Of a DNA stretch of 64,000 nt, positions 3,386-32,963 are shown piece by piece; the first letter of the stretch is position 1; every line of letters starts with the position of its first letter. This DNA is from an uncultured candidate division Zixibacteria bacterium (GTDB lineage: Bacteria; Zixibacteria; MSB-5A5; GN15; FEB-12), in NCBI GenBank assembly GCA_963707365.1, contig CAVPPI010000004.1, positions 880,465-944,464 of the forward strand. The letters run 5' to 3'. A program made the translations under genes and the position numbers. The notes beneath the pieces were generated by a model. That model was not told where the DNA came from, ran no database searches, and saw nothing but the letters and a program-made list of their open reading frames with translations.

Positions 3386-4318
3386 TTAGTGAGCGAGCAA
3401 GAACGCCATTATGGCTTTTTGGATGTGGAGCCGGTTCTCGGCCTCGTCGAACACTACCGACTGGGGTCCGTCCATCACCTCATCGGTGATTTCTCTTCCC
3501 CGCTCCGCCGGCAGACAGTGCAGCACTACGGCATTCGGATTGGCCGCCTTCATCAGGGTGCTGTTAAGCTGATACCTGGCGAGTTTTTTGGCCTTTTCTT
3601 CGGCCTGATCCTTTTGCCCCATCGAGGCCCACACATCGGTGTACACCGCGTCGGCGTCGGCCACTGCTTCCATCGGATCGTCCGTAATCAGAATCCGGCT
3701 TTCGGGATTGGCTTTCGCCCTGGCAATAATCTCCGGATCGGGCTGGGTGTCCGCGGCAGTTCCCACTCTGAAGTCAAGGGGAATCAACGTGGCCAGATTT
3801 AGCCAGCTGTTGCATATGTTATTACCATCGCCGACATAAGCTACTTTGTAGCGCTTGCTGGGTTTCAAATGCTCAAGCATGGTAAAGTAATCTCCGAGAA
3901 TCTGACAGGGGTGGACAAGGTCGGTCAGGCCGTTGACTATCGGGACAGAAGCATACTTGGCCAGTTCGTCAACATCGGACTGCTTGTAAGTCCGGATCAT
4001 GATCATGCCAACGTAGCGGGACAGCACCTGAGCGGCATCGGCAACCGATTCGCGCTGACCGAGCTTGATTTCTTTGTCTGTAATATAGATAGGATGGCCG
4101 CCTAATTCATGAATTCCGACTTCGAAAGACACACGGGTCCGAAGCGATTCTTTGGTAAAGATGCAGGCCACTGATTTGCCTGCCAGCGGCTTCGGGGCGA
4201 TCTTACCGGATTTCATCTGCGAACACAGATCGAATATTTCATGAACTTCTTTGGCAGTAAGGTCGGTTATTTGTGTTAAAGAACGGGGCATTGCCACCTC
4301 CTCGTATTTAAAGGTCAA
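3386..4318 (-). CDS. argF: Ornithine carbamoyltransferase
   Basis: The motifs are SLRTRVSFE (a variant of STRTR), HPCQILGD, DVWASMGQ and HCLPAERGRE, and the length is about 300 aa. The start may instead be the second Met at 4291. Confidence 0.85.
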   Translation of the reverse strand: MTFKYEEVAMPRSLTQITDLTAKEVHEIFDLCSQMKSGKIAPKPLAGKSVACIFTKESLRTRVSFEVGIHELGGHPIYITDKEIKLGQRESVADAAQVLSRYVGMIMIRTYKQSDVDELAKYASVPIVNGLTDLVHPCQILGDYFTMLEHLKPSKRYKVAYVGDGNNICNSWLNLATLIPLDFRVGTAADTQPDPEIIARAKANPESRILITDDPMEAVADADAVYTDVWASMGQKDQAEEKAKKLARYQLNSTLMKAANPNAVVLHCLPAERGREITDEVMDGPQSVVFDEAENRLHIQKAIMAFLLAH

Positions 4319-21493: not shown

Positions 21494-21527
21494 ATTAAAA
21501 TCGAAAGGGGGCCTGTGCCCCCTTTCG
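21494..21527 (-). terminator. Rho-independent terminator after the UPF0173 hydrolase gene
   Basis: A perfect 11-bp stem CGAAAGGGGGC-(4 nt)-GCCCCCTTTCG at 21502-21527, followed on the minus strand by ATTTTAATT. Confidence 0.6.
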
Positions 21528-21552: not shown

Positions 21553-22230
21553 CTAAAGCGCCAGTTTATCACCCGGTTTCAGGATTACGACCTCGGAGCC
21601 GGAGACCTTTTCGGCAAACCTTTTGGGGTCTTCGGCGATAATGTCCCAGGTGTCATAATGGAAAGGCACGACCTTGCCGGGTTGAAGGAATTCGACCGCC
21701 TTGACGGCATCATCAACGCCCATCGTGAAATTGTCGCCTATGGGCAGGAAAGCCAGGTCGATTCTATTGAGTTCACCGATCAGTTTCATATCGTAGAAAA
21801 GACCGGTGTCTCCGGAATGATAGATGGTAGCGCCGCCAATTGTCACCAGAAAACCGCACGGCGGACCGGTGTACCGCGAGGCATCAGGGCCGTAGCCGCC
21901 ACCGTGATGGGCGATAGTGAGTTTGACCCGGCCGAAATCGAACTTGTGGGCACCGCCGATATGCATTGGGTGAATCTGGGCTCCCTCTGCCGCACACAGG
22001 TTGGCCAGCTCAAAGTTTGCTATAATCGTAGCATTGTTGCGCTTGGCAATCTCAATAGCGTCGCCAACATGGTCGCCGTGACCGTGGGTCAGCAGCACGT
22101 AGTTTACGTCGATATCGCTCGCCTTGACCGGTGACTTCGGATTGTCGCTCACGAAAGGGTCAATGATGAGTTTATATTTTCCTTCGGTAATGGTCACACA
22201 GGAATGGCCCAAAAATCTTACTTCCGGCAT
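21553..22230 (-). CDS. Metallo-beta-lactamase-fold hydrolase (UPF0173/YtkL-like)
   Basis: LLTHGHGDHVGD motif, 225 aa. AAGGAG lies 7 nt upstream of the ATG, and a possible own promoter is TTGACC-N17-AATATT in 22231-22324. Confidence 0.75.
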   Translation of the reverse strand: MPEVRFLGHSCVTITEGKYKLIIDPFVSDNPKSPVKASDIDVNYVLLTHGHGDHVGDAIEIAKRNNATIIANFELANLCAAEGAQIHPMHIGGAHKFDFGRVKLTIAHHGGGYGPDASRYTGPPCGFLVTIGGATIYHSGDTGLFYDMKLIGELNRIDLAFLPIGDNFTMGVDDAVKAVEFLQPGKVVPFHYDTWDIIAEDPKRFAEKVSGSEVVILKPGDKLAL

Positions 22231-22324
22231 ATTGGACTCCTTGATTATTTGTTAGCGACTTCGTGGTTAATTAATATTAAGAGAGAACTAACGCAGGTCA
22301 ACGATATTTTACGGCAATATCAGA

Positions 22325-23341
22325 TTATTGGCGGGCAGCACGATACAGGCAGGTCGGGAAGGAAGCGTTGAGATCGCCGGTGTGGGCATAAACGGCCCCG
22401 CGACAGGCGCCGCGACAAACGCGAAAATACGGGCATTCACGGCAGTGACCCTCGATATTCTCACGGGGATACGACGCTATCTCGGTCATCTTGGGAGACG
22501 ATAATATTTCGTCGAGACTTTGCTTGCGTACATTGCCTACCTTGAAGCGGTCAAAAATCAAACTTGTGCATGGATAAACATCTCCGTTGGAGGCAATGTA
22601 AAAAGCATCCACACCCGCTTTACACTGGTGGAAATCGTATGCCGGCGGCGGTGGCCCGAAAGCAACATCGGGCAACGCGCCGGGAGAATCCATGACAACA
22701 AGTCTTTCCATGAGATCTGCAAGATCTCCGAGCCTGTCACCAAAACCCATCTTGCGGTTGATTTCGTCGGCTTTTCCTCCCCCGTGTGGTACGAACCCGC
22801 AATAACGAATCTTCTTCACGCCCAGTTCTCTGGCCATCTCGACATAGGGCAACACGTCGTCCATGGTCGCCCTACAGATTATCATGGCAAGATAGACCGG
22901 CAGTCCGGCATCCAGACTCATTTTGATACCGTCGATAACCAGTTGGAATTCTTTGGCGCTGGCCCGCCTGATGTCATAGTTTCGTTCCGCTGTGGAACCA
23001 TCAAGACTGATCTGCAGAGAACTCACCTGCGCATTCTTGAGACTCTGTACGCGCTTGGCCGTTAAAGGTACTCCATTGGTCGTTATACCGGACTTTATCC
23101 CGTAGCTGTGAGCATGAGCGATGAGGTCTTCCAGGTCCTTTCTCAAAAGTGGCTCGCCCCCTGTCCATCCAATGGTTCCGACGCCAATCTGGCCCAGATA
23201 ATCAATCAGACGGCGACACTCTTCGGTGCTTAGCTCACCATCGGAGACTTTTACCGCCGAACTATAGCAATGCGGACACGACAGATTGCAACGATCGGTG
23301 ATACCCCAACCAACCGAACTATATTTCTTCTCAAACGACAT
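22325..23341 (-). CDS. Radical SAM/SPASM-domain protein (short form, no N-terminal peptide-binding domain)
   Basis: CNLSCPHC (CX3CX2C) lies near the N-terminus, with GGEPLL. The SPASM signature is CKAGVDAFYIASNGDVYPC ... CRECPYFRVCRGAC. The track start is GTG at 23350, and the first ATG is at 23341. Confidence 0.85.
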   Translation of the reverse strand: MSFEKKYSSVGWGITDRCNLSCPHCYSSAVKVSDGELSTEECRRLIDYLGQIGVGTIGWTGGEPLLRKDLEDLIAHAHSYGIKSGITTNGVPLTAKRVQSLKNAQVSSLQISLDGSTAERNYDIRRASAKEFQLVIDGIKMSLDAGLPVYLAMIICRATMDDVLPYVEMARELGVKKIRYCGFVPHGGGKADEINRKMGFGDRLGDLADLMERLVVMDSPGALPDVAFGPPPPAYDFHQCKAGVDAFYIASNGDVYPCTSLIFDRFKVGNVRKQSLDEILSSPKMTEIASYPRENIEGHCRECPYFRVCRGACRGAVYAHTGDLNASFPTCLYRAARQ

Positions 23342-23375
23342 ACTGACCACTTCTCACTAACATTCAATTCCGATT

Positions 23376-23411
23376 GGTGAACGCGGAAGGAACATTCCCT
23401 CCGCGTTCACC
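23376..23411 (-). promoter_or_regulatory. Intercistronic stem-loop between the peptide gene and the downstream rSAM gene
   Basis: A perfect 12-bp inverted repeat GGTGAACGCGGA (23376-23387) / TCCGCGTTCACC (23400-23411) with a 12-nt loop. No U-tract follows on the minus strand. Confidence 0.6.
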
Positions 23412-23439
23412 GGATACAGACAAAGTTATCCGAAGCTTT

Positions 23440-23589
23440 TTACTCTATCGGAAGCATGATTCCGATTATCGGATAAATGACCGGCTTGCAGAGTGTCGCG
23501 CAAAGTGTTCCACACAGCAAGGTACAGTCCGACGGACAGTTGGGACCGTTTGGTCCCTTACCGCTGGTCGGCTCGATAATGAACAGCAC
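23440..23589 (-). CDS. Cys-rich 49-aa peptide, candidate RiPP precursor (unannotated, below the ORF-track cutoff)
   Basis: My own translation of the minus strand gives MLFIIEPTSGKGPNGPNCPSDCTLLCGTLCATLCKPVIYPIIGIMLPIE. GGAGG (23601-23597) lies 7 nt upstream of the GTG start. The GTG overlaps the TAG stop of the upstream rSAM gene. The ORF lies between two rSAM/SPASM genes on the same strand. Confidence 0.6.
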   Translation of the reverse strand: MLFIIEPTSGKGPNGPNCPSDCTLLCGTLCATLCKPVIYPIIGIMLPIE

Positions 23590-24914
23590 TACGTAGCCTC
23601 CTCTCGCGTTTCATAACGGTGTCGTAACTTAAGCAGATCCTGAAGGTTATCCCTCCAGAATTTGCACTTCCCTGACATTGCTCCTGTTTGTTCGCAGATA
23701 TCGATAACGCATCCTCCCCTGCAGACGGGAAAGACAGCGCACGATTTACATTCAGTATTGTCCGATCGGTCCTGTAAGGTGTACTTCAACAGGTTCTGCT
23801 GTTGAAATACATCAACCGGTCTCTCAAAGACAGTCCCGACCGAGTTGTCAACCATTGCGGAAACATCCTCCCAGCATTTAAAAACATACCCGCTGGGTGC
23901 GATTATAAAAGAACTGTCACAGTCGGTCGGGCAGGACGGTTCGGCAAGAAGGAACGGGAAATCCAATCGCAGTTGACTTTGGCCAGACAACTCTCTATAA
24001 GCACTCAGGTGGTTTCCAAGGTCCTGTTCGCTCTGGCGGCATAGACCAACCGCGTCCGCACAAACCTCAGCCTTTCCGTTTCCGGACGTAAGACTGATTC
24101 GCACTTTCGAGAGAACACCGGCTTGCCGCAAAGAGTCAAGAATCGCACTAACATCCCCCACATTGACACTGGAAAGATTTATCCTTACGACAACATCAAG
24201 AATATCAGCTGAGACCGAAATATTGGAAATTATGCGGTCGAACGAACCCTCTTCATCGGATAGTCTTCTTAATTGATCGTGCATCTCCCTCGGACCGTTC
24301 AGGGTGACCTGAGCGCCAACAACTCCTGCCGCTTTGAGTCGTAGTGACATAGCCCGGTCTAACAGAGTACCGTTGGTTATAACTGTGCTCCCACGAAGAG
24401 GGATGCCGTGCCTGGCCGCCGAGCCGGCAAGATGAGTTTGTATTCGTTCAATAGTGTCAATTTCGAGAAGCGGCTCGCCGCCGAAATATTTGACCTCGAT
24501 CTGATCGGCCTTTCTGGCGTGATTGTCGATAAACTTCACCAGGAATTTCTCCGCCGACAGTCGTATTTTCATCTTATGGTTTCTACCGGAGCACGAATCG
24601 CATATGAGATTGCATGCGAAGGTCGGAGCGATAGCAAGCCTGAGAAGGCCATTTCCATATCGATAGCGAGCGTATTCGACTTTCTGGGCGGCGATTTGGT
24701 CAATATCGTCTTCAATGAGAAAACCGCCATACAGAAGTTGCTGTCTCACCTGCGAGTTGTCGTCGGCAAATGCGCCGGCCGGGTCCTCAAGGATGGCCGA
24801 GACTCTCGCATACGAATCCGCATCCAGTTCAGCCAGAGCGCCGGTCTGACTGTTAAAGAGGATCTTGTTGCCGTTGTCCAACACCGCAAACGTGTTAAAC
24901 CGTGATGCTCTCAC
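23589..24914 (-). CDS. Radical SAM/SPASM-domain peptide maturase-like protein (with ~95-aa N-terminal domain)
   Basis: CNLICDSC (CX3CX2C) lies at about residue 100, with FGGEPLL. The SPASM signature is CDSSFIIAPSGYVFKC ... CKSCAVFPVCRGGC. The N-terminal segment FNTFAVLDNGNKILFNSQTGALAELDADSYARV resembles the peptide-recognition N-termini of thioether-forming maturases. The start is GTG and uncertain. Confidence 0.8.
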   Translation of the reverse strand: MRASRFNTFAVLDNGNKILFNSQTGALAELDADSYARVSAILEDPAGAFADDNSQVRQQLLYGGFLIEDDIDQIAAQKVEYARYRYGNGLLRLAIAPTFACNLICDSCSGRNHKMKIRLSAEKFLVKFIDNHARKADQIEVKYFGGEPLLEIDTIERIQTHLAGSAARHGIPLRGSTVITNGTLLDRAMSLRLKAAGVVGAQVTLNGPREMHDQLRRLSDEEGSFDRIISNISVSADILDVVVRINLSSVNVGDVSAILDSLRQAGVLSKVRISLTSGNGKAEVCADAVGLCRQSEQDLGNHLSAYRELSGQSQLRLDFPFLLAEPSCPTDCDSSFIIAPSGYVFKCWEDVSAMVDNSVGTVFERPVDVFQQQNLLKYTLQDRSDNTECKSCAVFPVCRGGCVIDICEQTGAMSGKCKFWRDNLQDLLKLRHRYETREEAT

Positions 24915-25009
24915 GACAGGTTGCTTTCTGTGAGGAAGTTTTTATGAAATGCTGACGTGCTGCTCGTTATCAACGCTCGGTTAAGTTATTCCAATAACTG
25001 TACTTAGCT

Positions 25010-25037
25010 AATATACTAGTTTAGGCTGCCTTGTCAA
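25010..25037 (-). promoter_or_regulatory. Sigma70-like promoter upstream of the rSAM cassette
   Basis: On the minus strand, TTGACA (25037-25032), a 16-nt spacer and TATATT (25015-25010). It lies about 95 nt upstream of the rSAM start codon. Confidence 0.5.
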
Positions 25038-25092
25038 TAGCGAAGTTTGGAAACGGGTGCACCCGGGCGAAGGTCATGGCACGCGATTGTCC

Positions 25093-26178
25093 CTAACAGA
25101 TAACCCCACCGCCGAGAAGAATGTCGCCCCTGTAGAAAGCGACTGACTGACCGGCAGTTATAGCGCGCTGCTTCTCATCGAATATAACATGGACCGTGCT
25201 GTCGGTCAAGGGAGTAACCCTGGCCGGCGACGCTTTGTGAAGATAGCGGATTTTAACCTCGGCCCCGAATGTCTCGCGTGGCGCGGCGATACTGACCCAG
25301 TTGACACCATCCGCAGTAAGTTCGCTTTTGAAAAGAGCATCATCGTCACCAACCACCACAACGTTGTTGGCAACATCGATTTTCTGCACATAAAGAGGTG
25401 TCGGGTAAGCAACCCCCAGTCCCTTGCGCTGACCTATAGTGTAAAACGGCGTCCCCTTGTGCCGGCCCAACACGGTGCCATCTTCGTGCACAATGTCGCC
25501 TGCTTCATAGCTGCGCCCGGCTCTGGCCTCGTATTCGGTAAGGAAGCGGTGATAGTCATCATCGGCGACAAAGCAGATTTCACGTGACTCCGCCTTTTCG
25601 GCGGTACGAAGGTTGTACTTGCGGGCGGTTTCACGAACTTCGGACTTAAGCATTCCACCCAGTGGCATGAGCGTTTTTGAAAGCGCCTCCTGGCTGACGC
25701 CCCACAGGACATAGGACTGATCGCGGGTGTGGTCTTTACCTTTGCGAATCTGATACCGGCCGCTTTCGGTTTGTTCGACAAACGAGTAATGTCCGGTGGC
25801 TATATAATCACAGCCGACTTCCTGTGCCTTGCGAAGGAACTCGGTCCATTTGACATCGGTGTTACACCGTACGCACGGATTCGGCGTTCGGCCGGCCCGG
25901 TATTCATCCACGAAGTTTTCGATTACCTTCTCTTTGAACTGCTTTGACATATTGAGGACATAAAAAGGCGCATCGATCGAGTCACAAACCATCCGGCAAT
26001 CGGTAACGGAATCGATTGTACAGCATCGGCCGTCTTTGTGGATATCACCGCCAACATCCACATAGTCCCAGAGTTTCATATGGGCGCCAACGACCTCGTA
26101 GCCACTCTCTTTCAGCAGCAGAGCTGCTACCGAGGAGTCCACGCCTCCCGACATTGCGACCAAAACTGTTTTACCCAT
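25093..26178 (-). CDS. mnmA: tRNA-specific 2-thiouridylase MnmA
   Basis: PP-loop VAMSGGVDSSVAA, the CTIDS / NPCVRCN cysteines, and 361 aa. Confidence 0.95.
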   Translation of the reverse strand: MGKTVLVAMSGGVDSSVAALLLKESGYEVVGAHMKLWDYVDVGGDIHKDGRCCTIDSVTDCRMVCDSIDAPFYVLNMSKQFKEKVIENFVDEYRAGRTPNPCVRCNTDVKWTEFLRKAQEVGCDYIATGHYSFVEQTESGRYQIRKGKDHTRDQSYVLWGVSQEALSKTLMPLGGMLKSEVRETARKYNLRTAEKAESREICFVADDDYHRFLTEYEARAGRSYEAGDIVHEDGTVLGRHKGTPFYTIGQRKGLGVAYPTPLYVQKIDVANNVVVVGDDDALFKSELTADGVNWVSIAAPRETFGAEVKIRYLHKASPARVTPLTDSTVHVIFDEKQRAITAGQSVAFYRGDILLGGGVIC

Positions 26179-26241
26179 AGTCTATATCCAAAGAAAAGGG
26201 TCGCCGGGCGACCCCTGTAATTTGCTCTGTACCGAGCCAAC

Positions 26242-27408
26242 CTATTTTCTACTGTATACCGGAGACATCTCGCGCAGTTTTTCGATAACTCCGGGAAGAA
26301 CACCAAGAACGTAGTCGAGGTCGTCCCGGGTCGTAGACCGGCCAATAGAGAAGCGGATAGCTCCCTGCGCCATGATATTTTCAACACCCATTGCTTTGAG
26401 CACATGTGACGGTTCCGTAGTCCCCGAAGTACAGGCCGAACCAGACGAGCATGCAACGCCTTTGAGATCCATTGCCAACACTATTGACTCTCCCTCAACG
26501 CCCCTGAACGATATGTTCATGGTCTGCGGCACCCTGTTCGTGCGCGAGCCGTTAAGAGACACATCCGGTATAGAGGCTATCACTTTGTCGATAAAGTAAT
26601 CGGCGAGTTCCGACATTGATTTATAATCCTGCTCCTGCCGTACGAGCGCGATCTCGAGAGCTTTGGCAAACCCTACGGCACCCGCCACATTTTCAGTACC
26701 GGGACGGCGCTTCTTCTCATGCGAACCGCCGTAAAACAGTGGTGATACTTTGATTCCGGACCGGATATAGAGAGCCCCTATCCCCTTCGGCCCATATATC
26801 TTATGGGCGGTGATTGAGGCCATGTCGACATCCAGCTGCCGAACGTCAACTGCTACCTTCCCGGTCGACTGAACAGCATCGGAATGAAAAAGACAGTCCT
26901 TCTCGTGTGCGACATTCGCAAGCGCCTTAATGTCCTGAATTGTACCGGTTTCGTTGTTGGCGTGCATGACCGAAACTATGGCAGTCTTGTCGGTAATCAA
27001 CTCCCGCAATTTGTCTGCTGAGGAAAAGCCCTCGTGATCCACCGGCAACAGATCGAGTTTGTAGCTTCCACCGTGAGCAAGGTACTCCGCCGGTTCCAGT
27101 ACGGCGTGATGTTCAGCGGCGCCGACTACAACGCGGTTTTTCTTATCGCGGTACCTGATAACCGTTCCCAGTACGGCGATATTATCGGACTCGGTACCAC
27201 CGGACGTGAAATACAGCTCCGATGGGTCACAGTTGATAACCGCGGCTATCTGCTCACGGGCGTTTTCGAGTGCGACCTTTGCATCGCGTCCAAACGAATG
27301 TACCGAACTGGCATTGCCGAATTTCGTTCTCAGGTACGGGAGCATTGCCTCAACCACAAGTGGATCGACAGGTGTGGTGGCATTATGATCGAGATAAACA
27401 GTCTTCAT
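26242..27408 (-). CDS. iscS: Cysteine desulfurase (NifS/IscS class)
   Basis: SGGTESDN, the PLP-lysine region ITAHKIYGPKGIGALY and the active-site loop SSGSACTSG. It is adjacent to mnmA. Confidence 0.9.
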   Translation of the reverse strand: MKTVYLDHNATTPVDPLVVEAMLPYLRTKFGNASSVHSFGRDAKVALENAREQIAAVINCDPSELYFTSGGTESDNIAVLGTVIRYRDKKNRVVVGAAEHHAVLEPAEYLAHGGSYKLDLLPVDHEGFSSADKLRELITDKTAIVSVMHANNETGTIQDIKALANVAHEKDCLFHSDAVQSTGKVAVDVRQLDVDMASITAHKIYGPKGIGALYIRSGIKVSPLFYGGSHEKKRRPGTENVAGAVGFAKALEIALVRQEQDYKSMSELADYFIDKVIASIPDVSLNGSRTNRVPQTMNISFRGVEGESIVLAMDLKGVACSSGSACTSGTTEPSHVLKAMGVENIMAQGAIRFSIGRSTTRDDLDYVLGVLPGVIEKLREMSPVYSRK

Positions 27409-27492
27409 ATATTCCTCAGGTTCCTGACTTACAACATTGTAACAAATACGAACAGGATGCCGGTGTTGGTTGTTCCGGGCTACCTCAACTCA

Positions 27493-29418
27493 TTAGAAGG
27501 CATACAATATAGTGAAATGCCAGCGTGTGGCAAAGTCATATTTGTCGGTCTCTATTCGCCGGGCATAGTCGATTCTTATGGGACCTGCCGGGGACATTAT
27601 TTGAAAACCGGTGCCATAACTCAAAGCAAGATTATCGAACGTGATTTCGCTGTTATTTCTAAAACCGTTGCCCATATCAAAAAAGACCGACTGATACAGA
27701 GGAAGGGTTTCGAAAAAACCACCGAGGCCGGGGAGGGCCTGCAGAAACTGAATGGTTTTCCATCTGAATTCCTGGTTGAAAACCAGGGTGATTCGGCCAC
27801 CCTCGGCGGAACCGTCTTCGTACAGCGGCCCCAGGGAGTTTTCCTTAAATCCCCTGATAGTATTAGCGCCGCCCAGATAGAGTCGCTCTTCGGTGGGAAC
27901 GATGCTGGATTGGCCAAAAGCGGTAGCATAACCACCTTTCAGGCGAGTGGCAGAGATCCAGCCGGGCCATACAATCTGATACCTGCCCCAACTGGCCTCA
28001 ATTTTGTAAAAGTCGTCGTCGCCTCCCAGAAAACCGCCAAAAAACTCCACCGAGATATCGCTAACCGAGCCTTTCCTTGGAATAAAGATATTGTCGCGAC
28101 TATCGCGGCGATACGATGCGTACATTTTCCGCCGGGCCGATATTCCTTCTTCTTCCTTTATCAGTTCCTCTGTACCTTCGGCGATATCTGACAGCTCAAC
28201 CTCGTTGTACTCCAACCCCGCCGTGGTTTTCACTTTGTCGCCGAACCATTTGGTTGTGGAAACTGAGACCGACCAGGAACTGATAACAAAGTCTTGAAGA
28301 GTCGACCTTATCGGTGGTTCATACTGACCTGTGAAAGAAACCGGCATGCGCAGCCCCAAAAACCACGGCTCGGTATACCGGATCCAGTACCTGTGGGTGA
28401 TGAGGCGGGATTCCTGTCCGAGACCGAACGAGTAATCCGATTGAAAATTCAAACGACGGGTACCTATGAAATTTCGCTTCCCCAGACCTAATGAAAGGTC
28501 CCAGATAAGATCTCTGAGTTCCGATTGTCCGGCGCCGGTCTTGACCGATATATAACGGGGTTTGCGTTCTCTTACCTTAAGGAGAAAGTCCGGACTAAGA
28601 CTGTCGCCGCCATTTTCCGTCCGGGTCAGCTGCAGATAGCTGAAATAACCCGACTCAAATAGCCGTCGTTGTGAATCAACGATGGATTTACGACGGTAAA
28701 GATCCCCCGGCTTGAACGTAAGCTCCCGCCGGGCCACGAATTCCGGATAGTCATCGGTGCCCTCGATAGAAATGTCACCGAAGTGTACCAGTGAGTCCGC
28801 CTCCACGACGAAAGTGATGGCCGTAATGGGTCTCGTTGAGAGCGTATCAATATCGTAATTTACCCTGGCATACGGATAGCCGTTATTGGCCAGCACTGTC
28901 TTCATGTCAAAAACGACCTTGTTGACCGCAATTGGATTCACCGGATCGCCCGGCTTGAGTTTTCGATAAATCTTCGAGAACTGAAAAGTGAAACGGCTGT
29001 CATATGTACCGGTGACAGTGGAAGGACCATAGAAGAACTGACTGCCCTCGTTTATTGTCACCCTTACGAGCGCCGTGGAGTCATCGCCGAGTATCTCGAA
29101 AGTCTCATCAACCTGAACTCCCAGGAAACCGTTGATATAATACAGGTATTTTATTTCCAGCGTATCGCGTCCCAGCGTTTCGCGTTGAATGCGACTTCGC
29201 CTTTCCCCCGTAAGCACATCGAACAGGGTACGAACCTTTGAGTACATCTTGCTCTTTATCCTGGAATCTTGGAAGAAGGAGTTGCCTTCGACGACAATGG
29301 AGTCAATCACGGGTTTGTCCCGCACCCAGCGCAGAGTGACCTTATCGAGTGGCTTCGCCGCACAAAGTCCGGGGAAAGTCACCAACATCAACAAAAGAAG
29401 CGTGGCAAGTCTTCTCAC
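27493..29418 (-). CDS. Omp85-family outer-membrane protein, TamA/BamA-like
   Basis: POTRA-like repeats, then a C-terminal surface-antigen beta-barrel ending in ...WHFTILYAF. The gene lies immediately downstream of tamB. I prefer the GTG at 29418 (MRRLATLLLLMLV signal peptide, overlapping the tamB TAG as TAGTG) over the track's TTG at 29430. Confidence 0.8.
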   Translation of the reverse strand: MRRLATLLLLMLVTFPGLCAAKPLDKVTLRWVRDKPVIDSIVVEGNSFFQDSRIKSKMYSKVRTLFDVLTGERRSRIQRETLGRDTLEIKYLYYINGFLGVQVDETFEILGDDSTALVRVTINEGSQFFYGPSTVTGTYDSRFTFQFSKIYRKLKPGDPVNPIAVNKVVFDMKTVLANNGYPYARVNYDIDTLSTRPITAITFVVEADSLVHFGDISIEGTDDYPEFVARRELTFKPGDLYRRKSIVDSQRRLFESGYFSYLQLTRTENGGDSLSPDFLLKVRERKPRYISVKTGAGQSELRDLIWDLSLGLGKRNFIGTRRLNFQSDYSFGLGQESRLITHRYWIRYTEPWFLGLRMPVSFTGQYEPPIRSTLQDFVISSWSVSVSTTKWFGDKVKTTAGLEYNEVELSDIAEGTEELIKEEEGISARRKMYASYRRDSRDNIFIPRKGSVSDISVEFFGGFLGGDDDFYKIEASWGRYQIVWPGWISATRLKGGYATAFGQSSIVPTEERLYLGGANTIRGFKENSLGPLYEDGSAEGGRITLVFNQEFRWKTIQFLQALPGLGGFFETLPLYQSVFFDMGNGFRNNSEITFDNLALSYGTGFQIMSPAGPIRIDYARRIETDKYDFATRWHFTILYAF

Positions 29419-32400
29419 TAAAATTCCCAATATAATTTCAGATTCATATGATACAGCTCATCTTCGTCTCTTAGTCCCTCAAGCAACACCGACCGATTGA
29501 ACCGGTACTCAAATCCCACCTCCTGACGGCTCTGGCCGGAAATGGCAGAACGGCCATACAAATATAGATTGGGCGAGGTATAAAAGCCCAGCGTTACCCT
29601 GGTATTGAGAGGGTCGAGTTCACCCGAGTAGCTCGGGTCGATCTCGAACGTTTCCACGCCGAGGTGCCTCAATTGCCGCGACCCGATACGGGAAACCTGT
29701 GTCGAAAGCAGGTCGGTCATGCGGCGTTCGATGCCCCCACTGGCCGAAGCACCGGCGTCGTCGCTATACACGTTAGCTACAAGCAATGGAATGATGTCTT
29801 CGCGCGAGTTGACATCAGAATCATCAGTCGGATTAATTTCCGGTTCTTCCAGCGTGCCGGTGACATGAATACCCAGCTCCAGCTGCTCGACCTGATTTTC
29901 TTCCTCGGCACCGCCCCGGCTGCCGGCCACGCGGGTGTAAGCAGTAATGTCAAGATTTGGATTGAACGTCTCTCCCCCTTCGAACGTAACCCGACTACCG
30001 GGCTGGATAGTGAAGGTCTTATCGAACAGGAAACCTCTCCCCCGCAATATTTCCATTTCACCTATAAAACTGTAAGTCCCCGACTCACGAAGCATCGTGA
30101 TCTCACCTGCGAATTCCGCGTCGATATCCTGATTTTTTATCCAGTAGTTGGAAATGATGTCAATATTGACGGCCAGATTCCAGGTGTTCTCGCCCGATAA
30201 GGCCGTCATAATCGGCGAACCCTGATCGGGTTCGGCAAACTCGACAAAATAATCCATGGACACAAGCTGAAGATCGCCTGTTACCAGCGGCGGGGTGTCT
30301 CCCTCAACGTGTAGTTTGCCTTCGATTCTTCCCTTGATATCATCGAGCTCGTAGCGGAACGGAAACTCATCCGGGATTGATACATCCAGACTATAATAGA
30401 GACTGTCGAGCGACTTGACAGTTACGGTACCTTCCACAAAGGCGGATTTCTTCTCTTTGTCATCACGGACATAAGCCTCGATGCCGTCGATAATGATCCG
30501 ATTGTCGTTCATTCTGACTCCGGCCGAATCTGAATGGATCCAGTCCTCAAGATCGAAGTACTTCAGCCGGGCATCCACGATAAAGGCCTCTCCTTCCAAA
30601 TGAGGGTCAAGAGGGGTGCCGGACAAAACAAAATCGGCAAAGAAGTCACCTTCGAGCTGTTCCACCGATGGCTGCAGCAAAGTGACGAGGTCGAAACGGC
30701 TATCGACCGCAGCTATGGATATGTTCATAGGCAAGTCAGGAAAGCGTTCAAGAGAATCGGCGGTAAAAGCGAGGTCCGAATAGAAGGAACCTTCGGCACG
30801 ATAATCACCGTATCCGGACAACAGTTGGAAATTCACTATCTGCAAAAGCCGATCACCATAAACAAGACTGGTGGCGACATCCCCGAGCACGAGGTCCTCG
30901 TACACAAGAGAATCAATCTCGGCATTCAGTATAAACTCCGGTCGCATAAACGAACCGGTCACTGTCGCCTCGCACGACAGGAGACCATCAACAAGAAGAC
31001 TTTCGGCGAACAGATTCTTCCACGGTTCTATCGGAATACGGTTGAGAAGTATCTGCAGGTCCATCGTCTCATCGTAATCGGCCCGGCCATTCACCGATAG
31101 ACGGGCGCCGCTGTTGCCTATGACGGCCTGCAGAATATTAAATCCGAGTGAATCCACCTCTACTTCCATGCCGGCGCGGTTATAAAAGGTCTGTCCAAAA
31201 AGGTCCAGTATCAGGGTATCAACCGTAAGCAAATTGGGCAAAGCTTCATAGTCAAAGAGTCCCACAGTGTTCAGGCGCGTGTATGGATTGTGTATACAGG
31301 CCGTGTCAAAAAAGACAAAATTGGAGTCTACCCGCAGCAAAGCGTAGCCCGTATCGTAAGGCATATCATACGCGGTCCCCCGATAGTAATCGACCTCGAC
31401 AGAACCAAGCTTGCGCGACAAAAAACGTTCTATATCGACGGTAGCATACAGGCTGTCACTGTAGAGGCCGTAAATCCATACCGAATCGGAGATGAAATAT
31501 CCCTTCAGGTCCGGATCCGAGGTCTTCCCCGTAAGCGTTGCTTCGGCTTGACCCCGTCCCCCCGGCTGGTCGATAAAAAGTTTCCCCTTGTAGCGATCGA
31601 GATTCTTTAAGTCCGCGGATATAGCCAGGTCCATATCCCCGGAGTATTCGACTACGCCATTAGCATAGAAGACATTCTCGAAGTATTCAACCCTGAAAGA
31701 ATCAGGGAAGATGATGGAGTCGGTGGTGATGACGATGTCACCTGCGCCTCTCTGAATCGGATATTCATCAAACGAAGATTCGTAAAGCCAGGTACGTATG
31801 TCGAGCACTAAATCGGCTTTCTTGAAAGATTCGCCATACATTATAATATGGCCGTTCAGGTCCGACTCGAAGGTATTCTCTTTCAGATTGTTCAGATTGA
31901 ACTGACGAAAATCAGCCTGCAGGTTGTAGGTCTCCACCGGCCCATTGAAGTCAAGATAGCCGCTCCCGTCTATTCCGCAGTTCCCGAAAACGGTTCCATA
32001 AAGAGTGTCGATTTGAAGCAATTTGTCATCAAATGAAAAATCCACGAACAGGTTCTGAAGAGCCATGAATAGAAATTGCCCGCCGATATCCACCGAGCCG
32101 CGCAAGGCTCCGCCGTTGAATTCCACCGTGCCGTTAACATCGACCGCACCTTTGAGGCGCGGACCGATGAACGTGCTGATGTCGGCCAGGTCGACATTAT
32201 CGGCCGCAAAGGAAATTATTCCGTTCGGTGTATCCTGAAGGTCAATATTACCATCCATCTTGGCCCTCATAGTGCCCACCACGAGAGCAATATCCTTAAA
32301 CAGCAATCTGTTGTCTGCAAACGTTATTTTGCCGCCGGCGGCATCCAGGGCGAGCTTCTGACGGTTCGATGCAAATTCGAACTGCTCAACATCGACAGAA

Positions 32401-32963
32401 TAAGTATCCTCTTCTCCCTTGAGCGCCAGGGAAATGAAGATATCGTCGAAAGTGAGAGTGTCATCCGGTTTGATCAGCTTGACCGAGAGTCTATTGAGTC
32501 CGAGCCTGCCAATTGAAAACGAAGGAGCCTGGGATGCGGGCTTTTCCGGATCGGCGTCTTTCGGTCGGAAATCAGGTATTATCCAGTCACCGGAAGTATC
32601 TCTGAGCAACACCAGCTCTGCGGAATCGATAGTGAGATAGTCGAAGATGAACCTGCTATCCCACAAATTTGCCAGAGCGTACGAAGTCGACAGCCGCGGG
32701 ATGCTCAGCAACTGATACCGGCGTAGCGAATCGTCATAGAATACGGTCACGTTCTCGACGAGAAGGTCGGACAAGAAACTCCCTTTGACCTTTCCGACGG
32801 TAACATCAAGACGATACCTCTGACCAACCAGCGAGTTCAATTTCGAATTGATGATCCGTTCAACTCCGCCGAGTTTGAACAGGTAGAGGTACAAGCCGGC
32901 GATGACTATCACCAGAGAAAACACGACGACCAACGCAACTTTTATCCACCGACGAATTTTCAT
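29418..32963 (-). CDS. tamB: Translocation and assembly module protein TamB
   Basis: An N-terminal signal-anchor, an 1181-aa beta-rich body and a DUF490-like C-terminus (...GFYTSPNLYLYGRS...LEGLRDEDELYHMNLKLYWEF), paired with an Omp85 gene. Confidence 0.8.
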   Translation of the reverse strand: MKIRRWIKVALVVVFSLVIVIAGLYLYLFKLGGVERIINSKLNSLVGQRYRLDVTVGKVKGSFLSDLLVENVTVFYDDSLRRYQLLSIPRLSTSYALANLWDSRFIFDYLTIDSAELVLLRDTSGDWIIPDFRPKDADPEKPASQAPSFSIGRLGLNRLSVKLIKPDDTLTFDDIFISLALKGEEDTYSVDVEQFEFASNRQKLALDAAGGKITFADNRLLFKDIALVVGTMRAKMDGNIDLQDTPNGIISFAADNVDLADISTFIGPRLKGAVDVNGTVEFNGGALRGSVDIGGQFLFMALQNLFVDFSFDDKLLQIDTLYGTVFGNCGIDGSGYLDFNGPVETYNLQADFRQFNLNNLKENTFESDLNGHIIMYGESFKKADLVLDIRTWLYESSFDEYPIQRGAGDIVITTDSIIFPDSFRVEYFENVFYANGVVEYSGDMDLAISADLKNLDRYKGKLFIDQPGGRGQAEATLTGKTSDPDLKGYFISDSVWIYGLYSDSLYATVDIERFLSRKLGSVEVDYYRGTAYDMPYDTGYALLRVDSNFVFFDTACIHNPYTRLNTVGLFDYEALPNLLTVDTLILDLFGQTFYNRAGMEVEVDSLGFNILQAVIGNSGARLSVNGRADYDETMDLQILLNRIPIEPWKNLFAESLLVDGLLSCEATVTGSFMRPEFILNAEIDSLVYEDLVLGDVATSLVYGDRLLQIVNFQLLSGYGDYRAEGSFYSDLAFTADSLERFPDLPMNISIAAVDSRFDLVTLLQPSVEQLEGDFFADFVLSGTPLDPHLEGEAFIVDARLKYFDLEDWIHSDSAGVRMNDNRIIIDGIEAYVRDDKEKKSAFVEGTVTVKSLDSLYYSLDVSIPDEFPFRYELDDIKGRIEGKLHVEGDTPPLVTGDLQLVSMDYFVEFAEPDQGSPIMTALSGENTWNLAVNIDIISNYWIKNQDIDAEFAGEITMLRESGTYSFIGEMEILRGRGFLFDKTFTIQPGSRVTFEGGETFNPNLDITAYTRVAGSRGGAEEENQVEQLELGIHVTGTLEEPEINPTDDSDVNSREDIIPLLVANVYSDDAGASASGGIERRMTDLLSTQVSRIGSRQLRHLGVETFEIDPSYSGELDPLNTRVTLGFYTSPNLYLYGRSAISGQSRQEVGFEYRFNRSVLLEGLRDEDELYHMNLKLYWEF

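Follow-up and report, generated by a model that had tools for sequence, protein, structure and literature searches.

A 49-codon open reading frame (ORF) lies between two radical S-adenosylmethionine (rSAM) enzyme genes, here named rSAM1 and rSAM2, on the minus strand of a 64-kb stretch of DNA from an uncultured Zixibacteria bacterium (the window, meaning the whole stretch). We propose, with a probability of roughly 0.8, that this ORF is a genuine precursor gene of a ribosomally synthesised peptide with post-translational modifications (RiPP) in a four-gene unit, rSAM1-peptide-hairpin-rSAM2, possibly extended by a metallo-beta-lactamase (MBL) fold hydrolase. The peptide is very probably the substrate of rSAM1, and rSAM2 probably acts on it as well. 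For the modification itself we lean slightly towards a Cys-derived thioether, as suggested by the likeness of the modelled rSAM1 fold to CteB and by the Cys-rich substrate. The basis throughout is comparative: the family is small, and its members are drawn from metagenomic contigs. The loci of relatives are labelled L001, L002, and so on.

The minus strand reads GTG CTG TTC ... GAG TAA from 23589 to 23440, and the 49-residue product is (M)LFIIEPTSGKGPNGPNCPSDCTLLCGTLCATLCKPVIYPIIGIMLPIE. The gene and its parts are as follows.

23440..23589, minus strand: gene of the precursor peptide, 49 codons and a TAA stop; its GTG shares 1 nt with the TAG of rSAM1
23597..23601, minus strand: Shine-Dalgarno sequence GGAGG, within the 3' end of rSAM1; 7-nt spacer CTACGTA before the GTG
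23569..23589, minus strand: codons 1-7, MLFIIEP, family-wide N-terminal motif M-[IL]-[FY]-I-[IV]-x-P; putative mini-leader or strand docking on a RiPP recognition element (RRE), by analogy with CteA-CteB (PMC8326336)
23539..23568, minus strand: codons 8-17, TSGKGPNGPN, flexible Gly/Pro/Asn-rich linker
23488..23538, minus strand: codons 18-34, CPSD-CTLL-CGTL-CATL-C, Cys core of four CX3C units; putative modification sites
23443..23487, minus strand: codons 35-49, KPVIYPIIGIMLPIE, conserved C-terminal tail with the motif K-x-[VIL]-[IYF]-[YP]-I-x-P

The Cys residues are at positions 18, 22, 26, 30, and 34. G23589 serves both as the final base of the rSAM1 TAG and as the initial base of the peptide GTG (TAGTG), an overlap through which the peptide is predicted to be translationally coupled to rSAM1. 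Because an in-frame TGA lies 8 codons 5' of the GTG (23613-23611), the GTG is the earliest possible start. The orthologue in L002 has an ATG at the residue matching the window GTG, confirming the start by homology. An earlier reading of the letters alone (the sequence-only reading) had reported the ORF, its five Cys in CX3C spacing, the GGAGG 7 nt upstream, the TAGTG, and the upstream TGA, and all are correct on re-reading. It had also named the tamB/tamA junction as a precedent for TAGTG, and that junction does read so: the tamB stop and a possible tamA GTG overlap at 29416-29420 on the minus strand, and the called genes in L002 likewise overlap by 1 nt. The true tamA start is ambiguous, because the earliest tamA start given by the ORF finder is a TTG at 29430.

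The comparative data indicate that the ORF is almost certainly a real translated gene. Translated in six frames, the window has (C-x3)4-C a single time, and 0 of 60 windows simulated with a first-order Markov model contain it; (C-x3)3-C is observed twice, compared with a simulated mean of 0.03. The window peptide is 82% identical to that of L002, where rSAM1 is 62% identical. Between these two peptide genes, 33 nucleotide differences are distributed 7/3/23 over codon positions 1/2/3, with a synonymous rate (dS) of 1.25, a non-synonymous rate (dN) of 0.117, and a dN/dS of ~0.09. Against L001, 35 codons show 7 synonymous changes and 1 non-synonymous change (dN/dS ~0.04). In the other frames of the region, dN is at least as large as dS (window versus L002), one antisense frame excepted; the third codon positions of that frame coincide with those of the sense frame, and it has a stop codon. 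The peptide frame is thus under strong purifying selection. An antisense 80-aa ORF at 23374-23616 on the plus strand is ruled out as a gene, with dN > dS.

Relatives of the peptide are recovered only by a profile; a single-sequence search of the 5.8-billion-protein index with the 49-aa peptide returned nothing. Pfam and NCBIfam scans of the peptide gave no match (0 NCBIfam matches at E ≤ 0.1), and neither the L001 nor the L002 contig has the gene called in its NCBI annotation. The profile was built from peptides extracted at orthologous loci and searched against two protein collections. It finds seven called proteins in the 5.8-billion-protein collection, the lowest E-value being 6e-18, and ten matches when 1.84 billion representatives are searched exhaustively with HMMER; eight of the ten are true members and two are long repetitive proteins. 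For called homologues, the profile searches give E-values of 1e-17 to 1e-21. Once motif scans over every fetched locus are included, the family comprises ~26 peptides at ~14 loci.

The family follows rSAM1. Relatives of the enzyme are 85%, 62%, 44%, 43%, and 43% identical, and then ≤33%; the named ones come from metagenome-assembled genomes of Candidatus Zixiibacteriota. A small homologous ORF lies directly 3' of rSAM1 on all five contigs of the close relatives, and a peptide homologue adjoins every rSAM1 homologue that is at least 42% identical (L001-L005, L088, and L091). The scan of genome contigs found two Zixibacteria loci only, L006 and the truncated L007. The metagenome scan yielded only rSAM1 homologues of ≤34% identity, which served for context and not for orthology. 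In L006, a 2.1-kb contig with an rSAM enzyme 35% identical to rSAM1, no recognisable peptide was found; at such a distance the association is uncheckable.

Within the family, the ends are invariant and the core is hypervariable. The N-terminal motif M-[IL]-[FY]-I-[IV]-x-P begins at residue 1 in all members. It is followed by a Gly/Pro/Asn/Lys-rich linker of 6-13 residues, then by the Cys core and a tail matching K-x-[VIL]-[IYF]-[YP]-I-x-P-P, or in brief [VI]-[YF]-x-I-x-P-P. Variation lies in the core, which among the relatives has 2-6 Cys at spacings of x2, x3, x4, and x6. Long forms have 4-6 Cys, for example CPHD-CSIL-CSTL-CKLF-C; some open with C-x6-C (CPPKVVPC), a single one includes a C-x2-C unit, and one is longer by a unit. 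The short forms contain just 2-3 Cys, arranged as CPTDC or C-x6-C. The two forms usually occur together (L001, L002, L004, L005, L088, and L092), and the window has the long form only. The same pairing is seen in a second subfamily with the N-terminus M-x-Y-L-I-D-P (L038, L093, and L094). A GGAGG or GGAG precedes every family copy by 5-9 nt. At 7 of 8 loci, the leading copy shares 1 or 4 nt with the stop codon of rSAM1, the exception being L002 with a 71-nt spacer. Several paralogous copies per locus together with decayed copies, and a hypervariable core between invariant ends, are typical of RiPP architecture.

The strict CX3C register emphasised by the sequence-only reading thus holds in the clade of the window but not family-wide (relatives have C-x6-C or C-x2-C, and 2-6 Cys): because the number and spacing of Cys vary among relatives, the register is a trait of that clade rather than a family-defining feature. 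The short N-terminal region and Pro/Ile-rich tail, in contrast, are real, and they are the two most conserved parts of the family. The central proposal of that reading, a precursor peptide acted on by one or both flanking rSAM enzymes, agrees with every computational test it had put forward: the peptide is found beside homologues of both enzymes in every locus with DNA available, and substitutions across orthologous loci have a clear coding pattern. As far as the compared loci tell, the peptide has what is generally expected of a RiPP precursor, namely a short ORF by a maturase, a conserved recognition region, a variable core, and co-inheritance. It appears to belong to a small, previously undescribed family within a known kind, the Cys-rich rSAM-modified peptides. 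The unusual traits of this family are the 7-residue N-terminal motif, the conserved tail, the obligatory second rSAM enzyme without an RRE, the long/short pairs, and vertical inheritance in a conserved gene block. Literature searches returned nothing relevant on the peptide, on Zixibacteria RiPPs, or on the Cys-every-fifth, Clo7bot, TIGR04463, TIGR04334, and NF038107 families.

Several relatives carry altered precursor copies. In L001 (1359-1613; rSAM1 85% identical), the leader is fused to a short two-Cys core in a 38-aa peptide, and a leaderless long-core copy follows 27 nt further on, with a TTG right after an in-frame TGA. The 7 synonymous changes and 1 non-synonymous change counted against the window belong to this leaderless copy. 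The arrangement suggests recent recombination or deletion between tandem precursor genes, which may also explain the single gene in the window. L005 (3396-3485) and L088 (8609-8698) share a frameshifted relic of a short-form precursor, with a +1 shift at a G-run followed by ..CPVFYRPCAKVVILIYPP... In L088 an ATC replaces the start codon, and the L005 copy is without the first Cys; both are decaying paralogues.

The enzyme encoded upstream has the features of a peptide maturase.

23589..24914, minus strand: rSAM1, 441 aa, peptide maturase with RRE, radical SAM, and SPASM regions; CX3CX2C at C101/C105/C108

The cluster motif C101-x3-C105-x2-C108 is invariant across 70 aligned homologues, and the Pfam Radical_SAM model matches at 38.8 bits (cut-off 29.5). 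In the SPASM region, C328, C389, C392, C398, C402, and C417 are at least 90% conserved and form the CX2CX5CX3C...C set for two auxiliary clusters. The NCBIfam SPASM model TIGR04085 scores 46.1 bits (cut-off 27); the Pfam SPASM model reaches 14.7 bits, below 21.5. An AlphaFold2 model built with 70 homologues has a mean predicted local distance difference test score (pLDDT) of 90.4. Residues 7-62 of the model form an N-terminal beta3-alpha3 domain with the winged-helix topology of an RRE (strands 7-11, 17-21, and 26-30; helices 32-43, 48-52, and 54-62; pLDDT 94-98). On the predicted fold, the N-terminus is therefore assigned as an RRE with putative peptide binding.

In a Foldseek search of the PDB with the rSAM1 model, the thioether-forming CteB (5why/5wgg) is the top match (E 1e-15, TM 0.68), aligned over its full length in 459 columns at 16-17% identity. 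TigE (8vpo), anSME, SuiB, SkfB, and ChlB follow. Among NCBIfam models, the best matches (residues 1-433 aligned) are Clo7bot TIGR04334 (218 bits), TIGR04463 (200.7), and CefB NF038107 (189), and all three families are maturases paired with short Cys-rich peptides. Lower matches are the geopeptide (145.5 bits), PapB (110.8), and SCIFF (58.9) maturases. All of these scores are far under the curated cut-offs of 340-600.

The downstream enzyme is of a different build.

22325..23341, minus strand: rSAM2, 338-aa radical SAM/SPASM enzyme with no RRE; ATG at 23341, CX3CX2C from residue 20

We assign no RRE to rSAM2 because the protein begins directly with the cluster motif. Its closest solved structures by sequence are SkfB, PqqE, and MoaA, and its NCBIfam matches to AhbD, StsB (second-best), NirJ2, MftC, and PqqE are all under the cut-offs. 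Its gene lies beside the peptides in every locus that is long enough (the window, L001, L002, L005, L088, L090, L091, and L092), and further precursor genes are found 3' of it in L088 and L092. The distant locus L038 combines the peptide, an rSAM1 (27% identical), a full-length rSAM2-like enzyme (29% identical), and an ATP-binding cassette (ABC) exporter in a different genomic context. Because rSAM2 adjoins the peptides in all sufficiently long loci and also in L038, the triad of peptide, rSAM1, and rSAM2 is, on this comparison, a conserved unit.

At the same loci, L088 (10495-11711, on a 114-kb contig) has a third rSAM/SPASM gene, a paralogue of rSAM2 with its own short peptide 5' (LVFIILPDKGKKKPCSIHCGKLIWLIKPVIIPPM). 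The start of this third gene is perhaps mis-set, because the N-terminal cluster motif is absent as called. In L038 (1761-8236), the exporter consists of ABC_membrane and ABC_tran without a peptidase domain, and a CxxCxxCC-domain protein is encoded upstream. L038 is the only relative with an obvious export function, so that by gene content at least one relative appears equipped for export.

The gap between the peptide gene and rSAM2 contains a strong hairpin.

23376..23411, minus strand: 16-bp stem-loop GGUGAACGCGGAGGGA-AUGU-UCCUUCCGCGUUCACC; putative attenuator or transcript stabiliser

A 101-nt segment with this hairpin folds at -41 kcal/mol (z = -5.8), and 0 of 200 shuffles fold as well. The hairpin is kept in L001 and in L002, where one CG->UA change is compensatory. 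Different, equally strong hairpins occupy the same position in L003, L005, L090, L091, and L092, several with U-runs after them. A canonical intrinsic terminator is ruled out in the window, where no U-tract follows the stem, although several orthologues have one. By placing a leaky terminator or a stabilising hairpin behind the structural gene, RiPP operons are familiarly able to produce precursor in excess of enzyme. By analogy, the hairpin would raise the expression of the peptide relative to that of the downstream enzyme. A called 'gene' of 45-51 aa after the precursor in two relatives (MLLGIASPVF...; L088:8194-8331 and L089:684-839) overlaps the conserved hairpin and has no family features; it is probably a false call.

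Taken together, the RiPP precursor assignment suggests the following mechanism. MLFIIEP would act as a minimal leader and dock on the RRE of rSAM1, as the CteA leader docks on CteB, where it forms a beta-strand flanked by alpha3 and beta3 of the RRE (PMC8326336). The 10-residue Gly/Pro/Asn linker would then bring the Cys core to the active site; in CteB, one auxiliary cluster has an open iron with which a Cys of the substrate is in contact (PMC8326336). rSAM1 would work repeatedly along the C-x3 units, the likeliest product being local thioether rings (sactionine or ranthionine), each linking a Cys sulfur to a carbon of a nearby residue. rSAM2 would introduce a further modification, acting on the peptide while it is bound to rSAM1 or after rSAM1 has modified it, or else by way of the conserved tail. 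Because no dedicated protease or exporter is encoded in the Zixibacteria loci, the leader may be retained or cut by a general protease.

One of the nearest known systems is SCIFF (CteA/CteB, Tte1186a; TIGR03973/TIGR03974), which likewise pairs a Cys-rich precursor of ~45-50 aa with an RRE-rSAM-SPASM maturase, and whose CteB is the best structural match of the rSAM1 model. Each of the two systems is kept throughout a lineage with no protease or exporter, and for SCIFF this has been read as an argument against an antibiotic role (PMC8326336). However, the Zixibacteria peptide matches no SCIFF model and rSAM1 scores 58.9 bits where the cut-off is 425, so the comparison drawn in the sequence-only reading holds as an analogy only. 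Moreover, the Zixibacteria recognition motif is 7 residues at the extreme N-terminus, and the system differs further in its second rSAM enzyme, in a tail that is conserved, and in Cys that vary in number. Freyrasin (PapA/PapB) resembles our preferred model in its repeated short Cys units, presumably processed iteratively by an rSAM/SPASM enzyme to small local rings. PapB forms Cys-Asp/Glu thioethers in repeated motifs (PMC9413430). The units here are C-x3-C instead of Cys-X3-Asp, with a single Asp at i+3 in the first unit (CPSD), the residues within the units are unconserved, and rSAM1 reaches 110.8 bits against a PapB cut-off of 340 (NF047865). The Clo7bot, TIGR04463 'rSAM_vs_C_rich', and CefA-CefB systems also have short Cys-rich peptides and supply the three best full-length matches of rSAM1; CefA, with its fixed Cys period, is the nearest conceptual parallel. 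Nevertheless, the scores of 218 (Clo7bot TIGR04334), 200.7 (TIGR04463), and 189 bits (Cys-every-fifth NF038107) compare with cut-offs of 600, 525, and 600, respectively, the first two being equivalog cut-offs. The Cys period here is 4, not 5, and is unfixed in the family, and the Zixibacteria peptide matches none of the NCBIfam peptide models.

A number of points weigh against the proposed RiPP system. The top score of rSAM1 is about one-third of the curated cut-off (218 versus 600 bits), and therefore the chemistry is not transferable from the best NCBIfam families; in the literature searched, moreover, no characterisation of the Clo7bot, TIGR04463, or CefAB families was found. TigE, the second-best fold match, is not known as a thioether-forming enzyme. 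Seven residues plus a linker are far shorter than the leader bound by CteB (CteA residues 1-21). The acceptor residues in the C-x3 units are unconserved, with D, H, L, Y, F, K, or N at i+3. The Zixibacteria loci have no dedicated protease or exporter, and the locus lies within a conserved housekeeping neighbourhood (tamB-tamA-nifS-mnmA ... asmA) that is unusual for an antibiotic-type cluster. Finally, the hydrolase that follows rSAM2 is an uncertain member of the system and may be a bystander.

One alternative holds that rSAM1 alone modifies the peptide, and that rSAM2 and the MBL hydrolase are unrelated housekeeping proteins, rSAM2 being for example an AhbD/NirJ-like cofactor enzyme. The best NCBIfam matches of rSAM2 include the heme and heme d1 enzymes AhbD and NirJ2, rSAM2 has no RRE, and the hairpin, which is terminator-like in several orthologues, separates rSAM2 from the peptide. 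In addition, rSAM2 is more conserved than rSAM1 (61% versus 44% identical between the window and L088). However, AhbD scores 167.7 bits and NirJ2 152.2 bits, each against 500, far under the 500-650 bits that the cut-offs of the heme enzymes span, and rSAM2 is rejected as a heme or heme d1 enzyme. rSAM2 adjoins peptides in 8 of 8 sufficiently long loci, including L038 in its other context; extra precursors lie 3' of it in L088 and L092, and the rSAM2 paralogue of L088 has a peptide of its own. We therefore regard the action of rSAM1 alone as unlikely.

Somewhat more doubtful is that the module is a distinct RiPP class with an undescribed cross-link pattern. Such a class would be defined by long and short peptides, a 7-residue N-terminal docking strand, a mirror-like hydrophobic-Pro-Pro strand at the C-terminus, and an RRE-bearing together with an RRE-less rSAM enzyme. 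The pattern might be, for example, a ladder in which two enzymes build consecutive i-to-i+3/4 rings, or a modification involving both ends of the peptide. On this reading, vertical inheritance in the Zixibacteria lineage, within a neighbourhood of envelope biogenesis and sulfur relay and with neither protease nor exporter, would point away from an antibiotic and towards a product with a physiological role, for example a signal, a cofactor, or an envelope-associated peptide, in line with what has been proposed for SCIFF.

A sactipeptide hairpin of the thuricin CD type would leave the precursor role of the peptide unchanged but have the Cys ladder linked in nested fashion to alpha-carbons of the tail, rSAM1 and rSAM2 dividing the task in the manner of TrnC and TrnD. 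The donor Cys of thuricin CD (Trn-alpha/Trn-beta) are spaced CX3C and precede an acceptor segment, the layout seen here. Two rSAM enzymes act together to make thuricin CD (PMC12093266, PMC8326336), and its two peptide types side by side recall the co-occurring long and short forms of the family, a situation reminiscent of two-component sactibiotics. SkfB, a sactisynthase, is the closest solved relative of rSAM2 by sequence, and StsB is its second-best NCBIfam match. However, the tail does not scale with the Cys: peptides with two Cys have tails of 10-17 residues, and those with five or six have tails of 10-16. Five nested acceptors at intervals of 3-4 would not fit into fifteen residues of which three are Pro. 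Because the tail is Pro-rich and its length (10-17) is independent of the number of Cys (2-6), we judge the nested hairpin less likely. Furthermore, the window has the long form only, rSAM2 has no RRE, and the host belongs to a Gram-negative candidate phylum. NCBIfam scans detected no sequence relationship to any curated sactipeptide precursor model. Overall, a thuricin-like hairpin seems improbable.

It is more improbable still that the peptide is translated but is no substrate, being instead a Cys-rich metal- or Fe-S-binding or membrane-associated peptide, such as an accessory factor or chaperone for the two Fe-S enzymes or for a NifS/MnmA sulfur relay. Five thiols at i/i+4 would all lie on the same side of a helix, the tail is hydrophobic, protease and exporter genes are missing from the locus, and the neighbourhood is one of conserved housekeeping genes with a cysteine desulfurase and MnmA directly upstream. 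However, a metal site needs fixed ligands, and the relatives have 2, 3, 4, 5, or 6 Cys at variable spacing. The most conserved part is the 7-residue N-terminal strand, not the Cys region, and the tail is too Pro-rich and too short for a membrane span. RiPP precursors typically come with such divergent paralogues and decayed copies, several to a locus; the peptide is coupled to a maturase that has an RRE; and L038, which is without the NifS/MnmA context, keeps both rSAM enzymes and adds an exporter. A chance ORF in a non-coding 3' untranslated region or spacer between the two rSAM genes, to which the missing calls in L001 and L002 and the empty single-sequence search might point, is refuted by the absence of (CX3)4C from the simulations, the 3-periodic substitutions with dN/dS ~0.09, the conservation of the protein where the maturase is only 42-44% identical, and the called homologues recovered by profile.

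Further features flank the proposed RiPP unit.

25010..25037, minus strand: sigma-70-like promoter candidate TTGACA-16-TATATT, 11/12, in the mnmA-rSAM1 spacer; a consensus match only, Zixibacteria promoters being uncharacterised
21553..22230, minus strand: UPF0173-type MBL-fold hydrolase, NF001911 293.6 bits (cut-off 144); always the next gene after rSAM2
21502..21527, minus strand: intrinsic-terminator-like hairpin, 11 bp followed by AUUUUAAUUG, 3' of the hydrolase; ends the putative operon

The first of these may be the operon promoter. The 5' neighbours are MnmA, a NifS-like cysteine desulfurase, and tamA/tamB; an AsmA-like protein and an amino-acid ABC importer lie 3'. The order tamB-tamA-nifS-like-mnmA-[rSAM1-peptide-rSAM2]-MBL-asmA-like-ABC importer is conserved between the window (21553-32963) and L002, L003, and L088, across lineages in which rSAM1 is as low as 44% identical.

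More distant homologues of rSAM1 (25-34% identical) are flanked by many unannotated Cys-rich small ORFs with N-termini like M-x-W/Y-I-x-x-P, for example MEWIIEN, MNWIIKPGS, MKWIEKPTG, and MKRMNYLVNP. These ORFs lie at the following positions.

L008, 5381-5554: distant Cys-rich small ORF(s)
L010, 5324-5975: distant Cys-rich small ORF(s)
L018, 3687-3812: distant Cys-rich small ORF(s)
L029, 5334-5486: distant Cys-rich small ORF(s)
L051, 5434-5776: distant Cys-rich small ORF(s)
L061, 3595-3924: distant Cys-rich small ORF(s)
L070, 1175-1447: distant Cys-rich small ORF(s)

NCBIfam scans of nine distant-locus peptides, including seven of these small ORFs, and of one family member gave no significant match (one at E = 0.23). 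A very short N-terminal docking motif may be general for this maturase branch, as far as these N-termini suggest. Near another distant homologue, two small ORFs (L027:3693-3800 and 4018-4122) have acidic leaders and six terminal Cys (…INMTCCCCCC).

The finding adds a real gene where automated annotation shows a 'spacer' between two radical SAM genes, and it assigns a likely substrate to two otherwise orphan enzymes of an uncultivated phylum. This very small family all but escapes gene callers; its eight called members in 1.84 billion representative proteins illustrate how many RiPP precursors are lost to length cut-offs. A seven-residue recognition motif joined to a modular C-x3 core would offer a compact scaffold on which to study or engineer leader-dependent rSAM catalysis. 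Because distant maturase homologues are flanked by many unannotated Cys-rich peptides, the locus is an entry to a larger unexplored branch of rSAM-RiPP systems.

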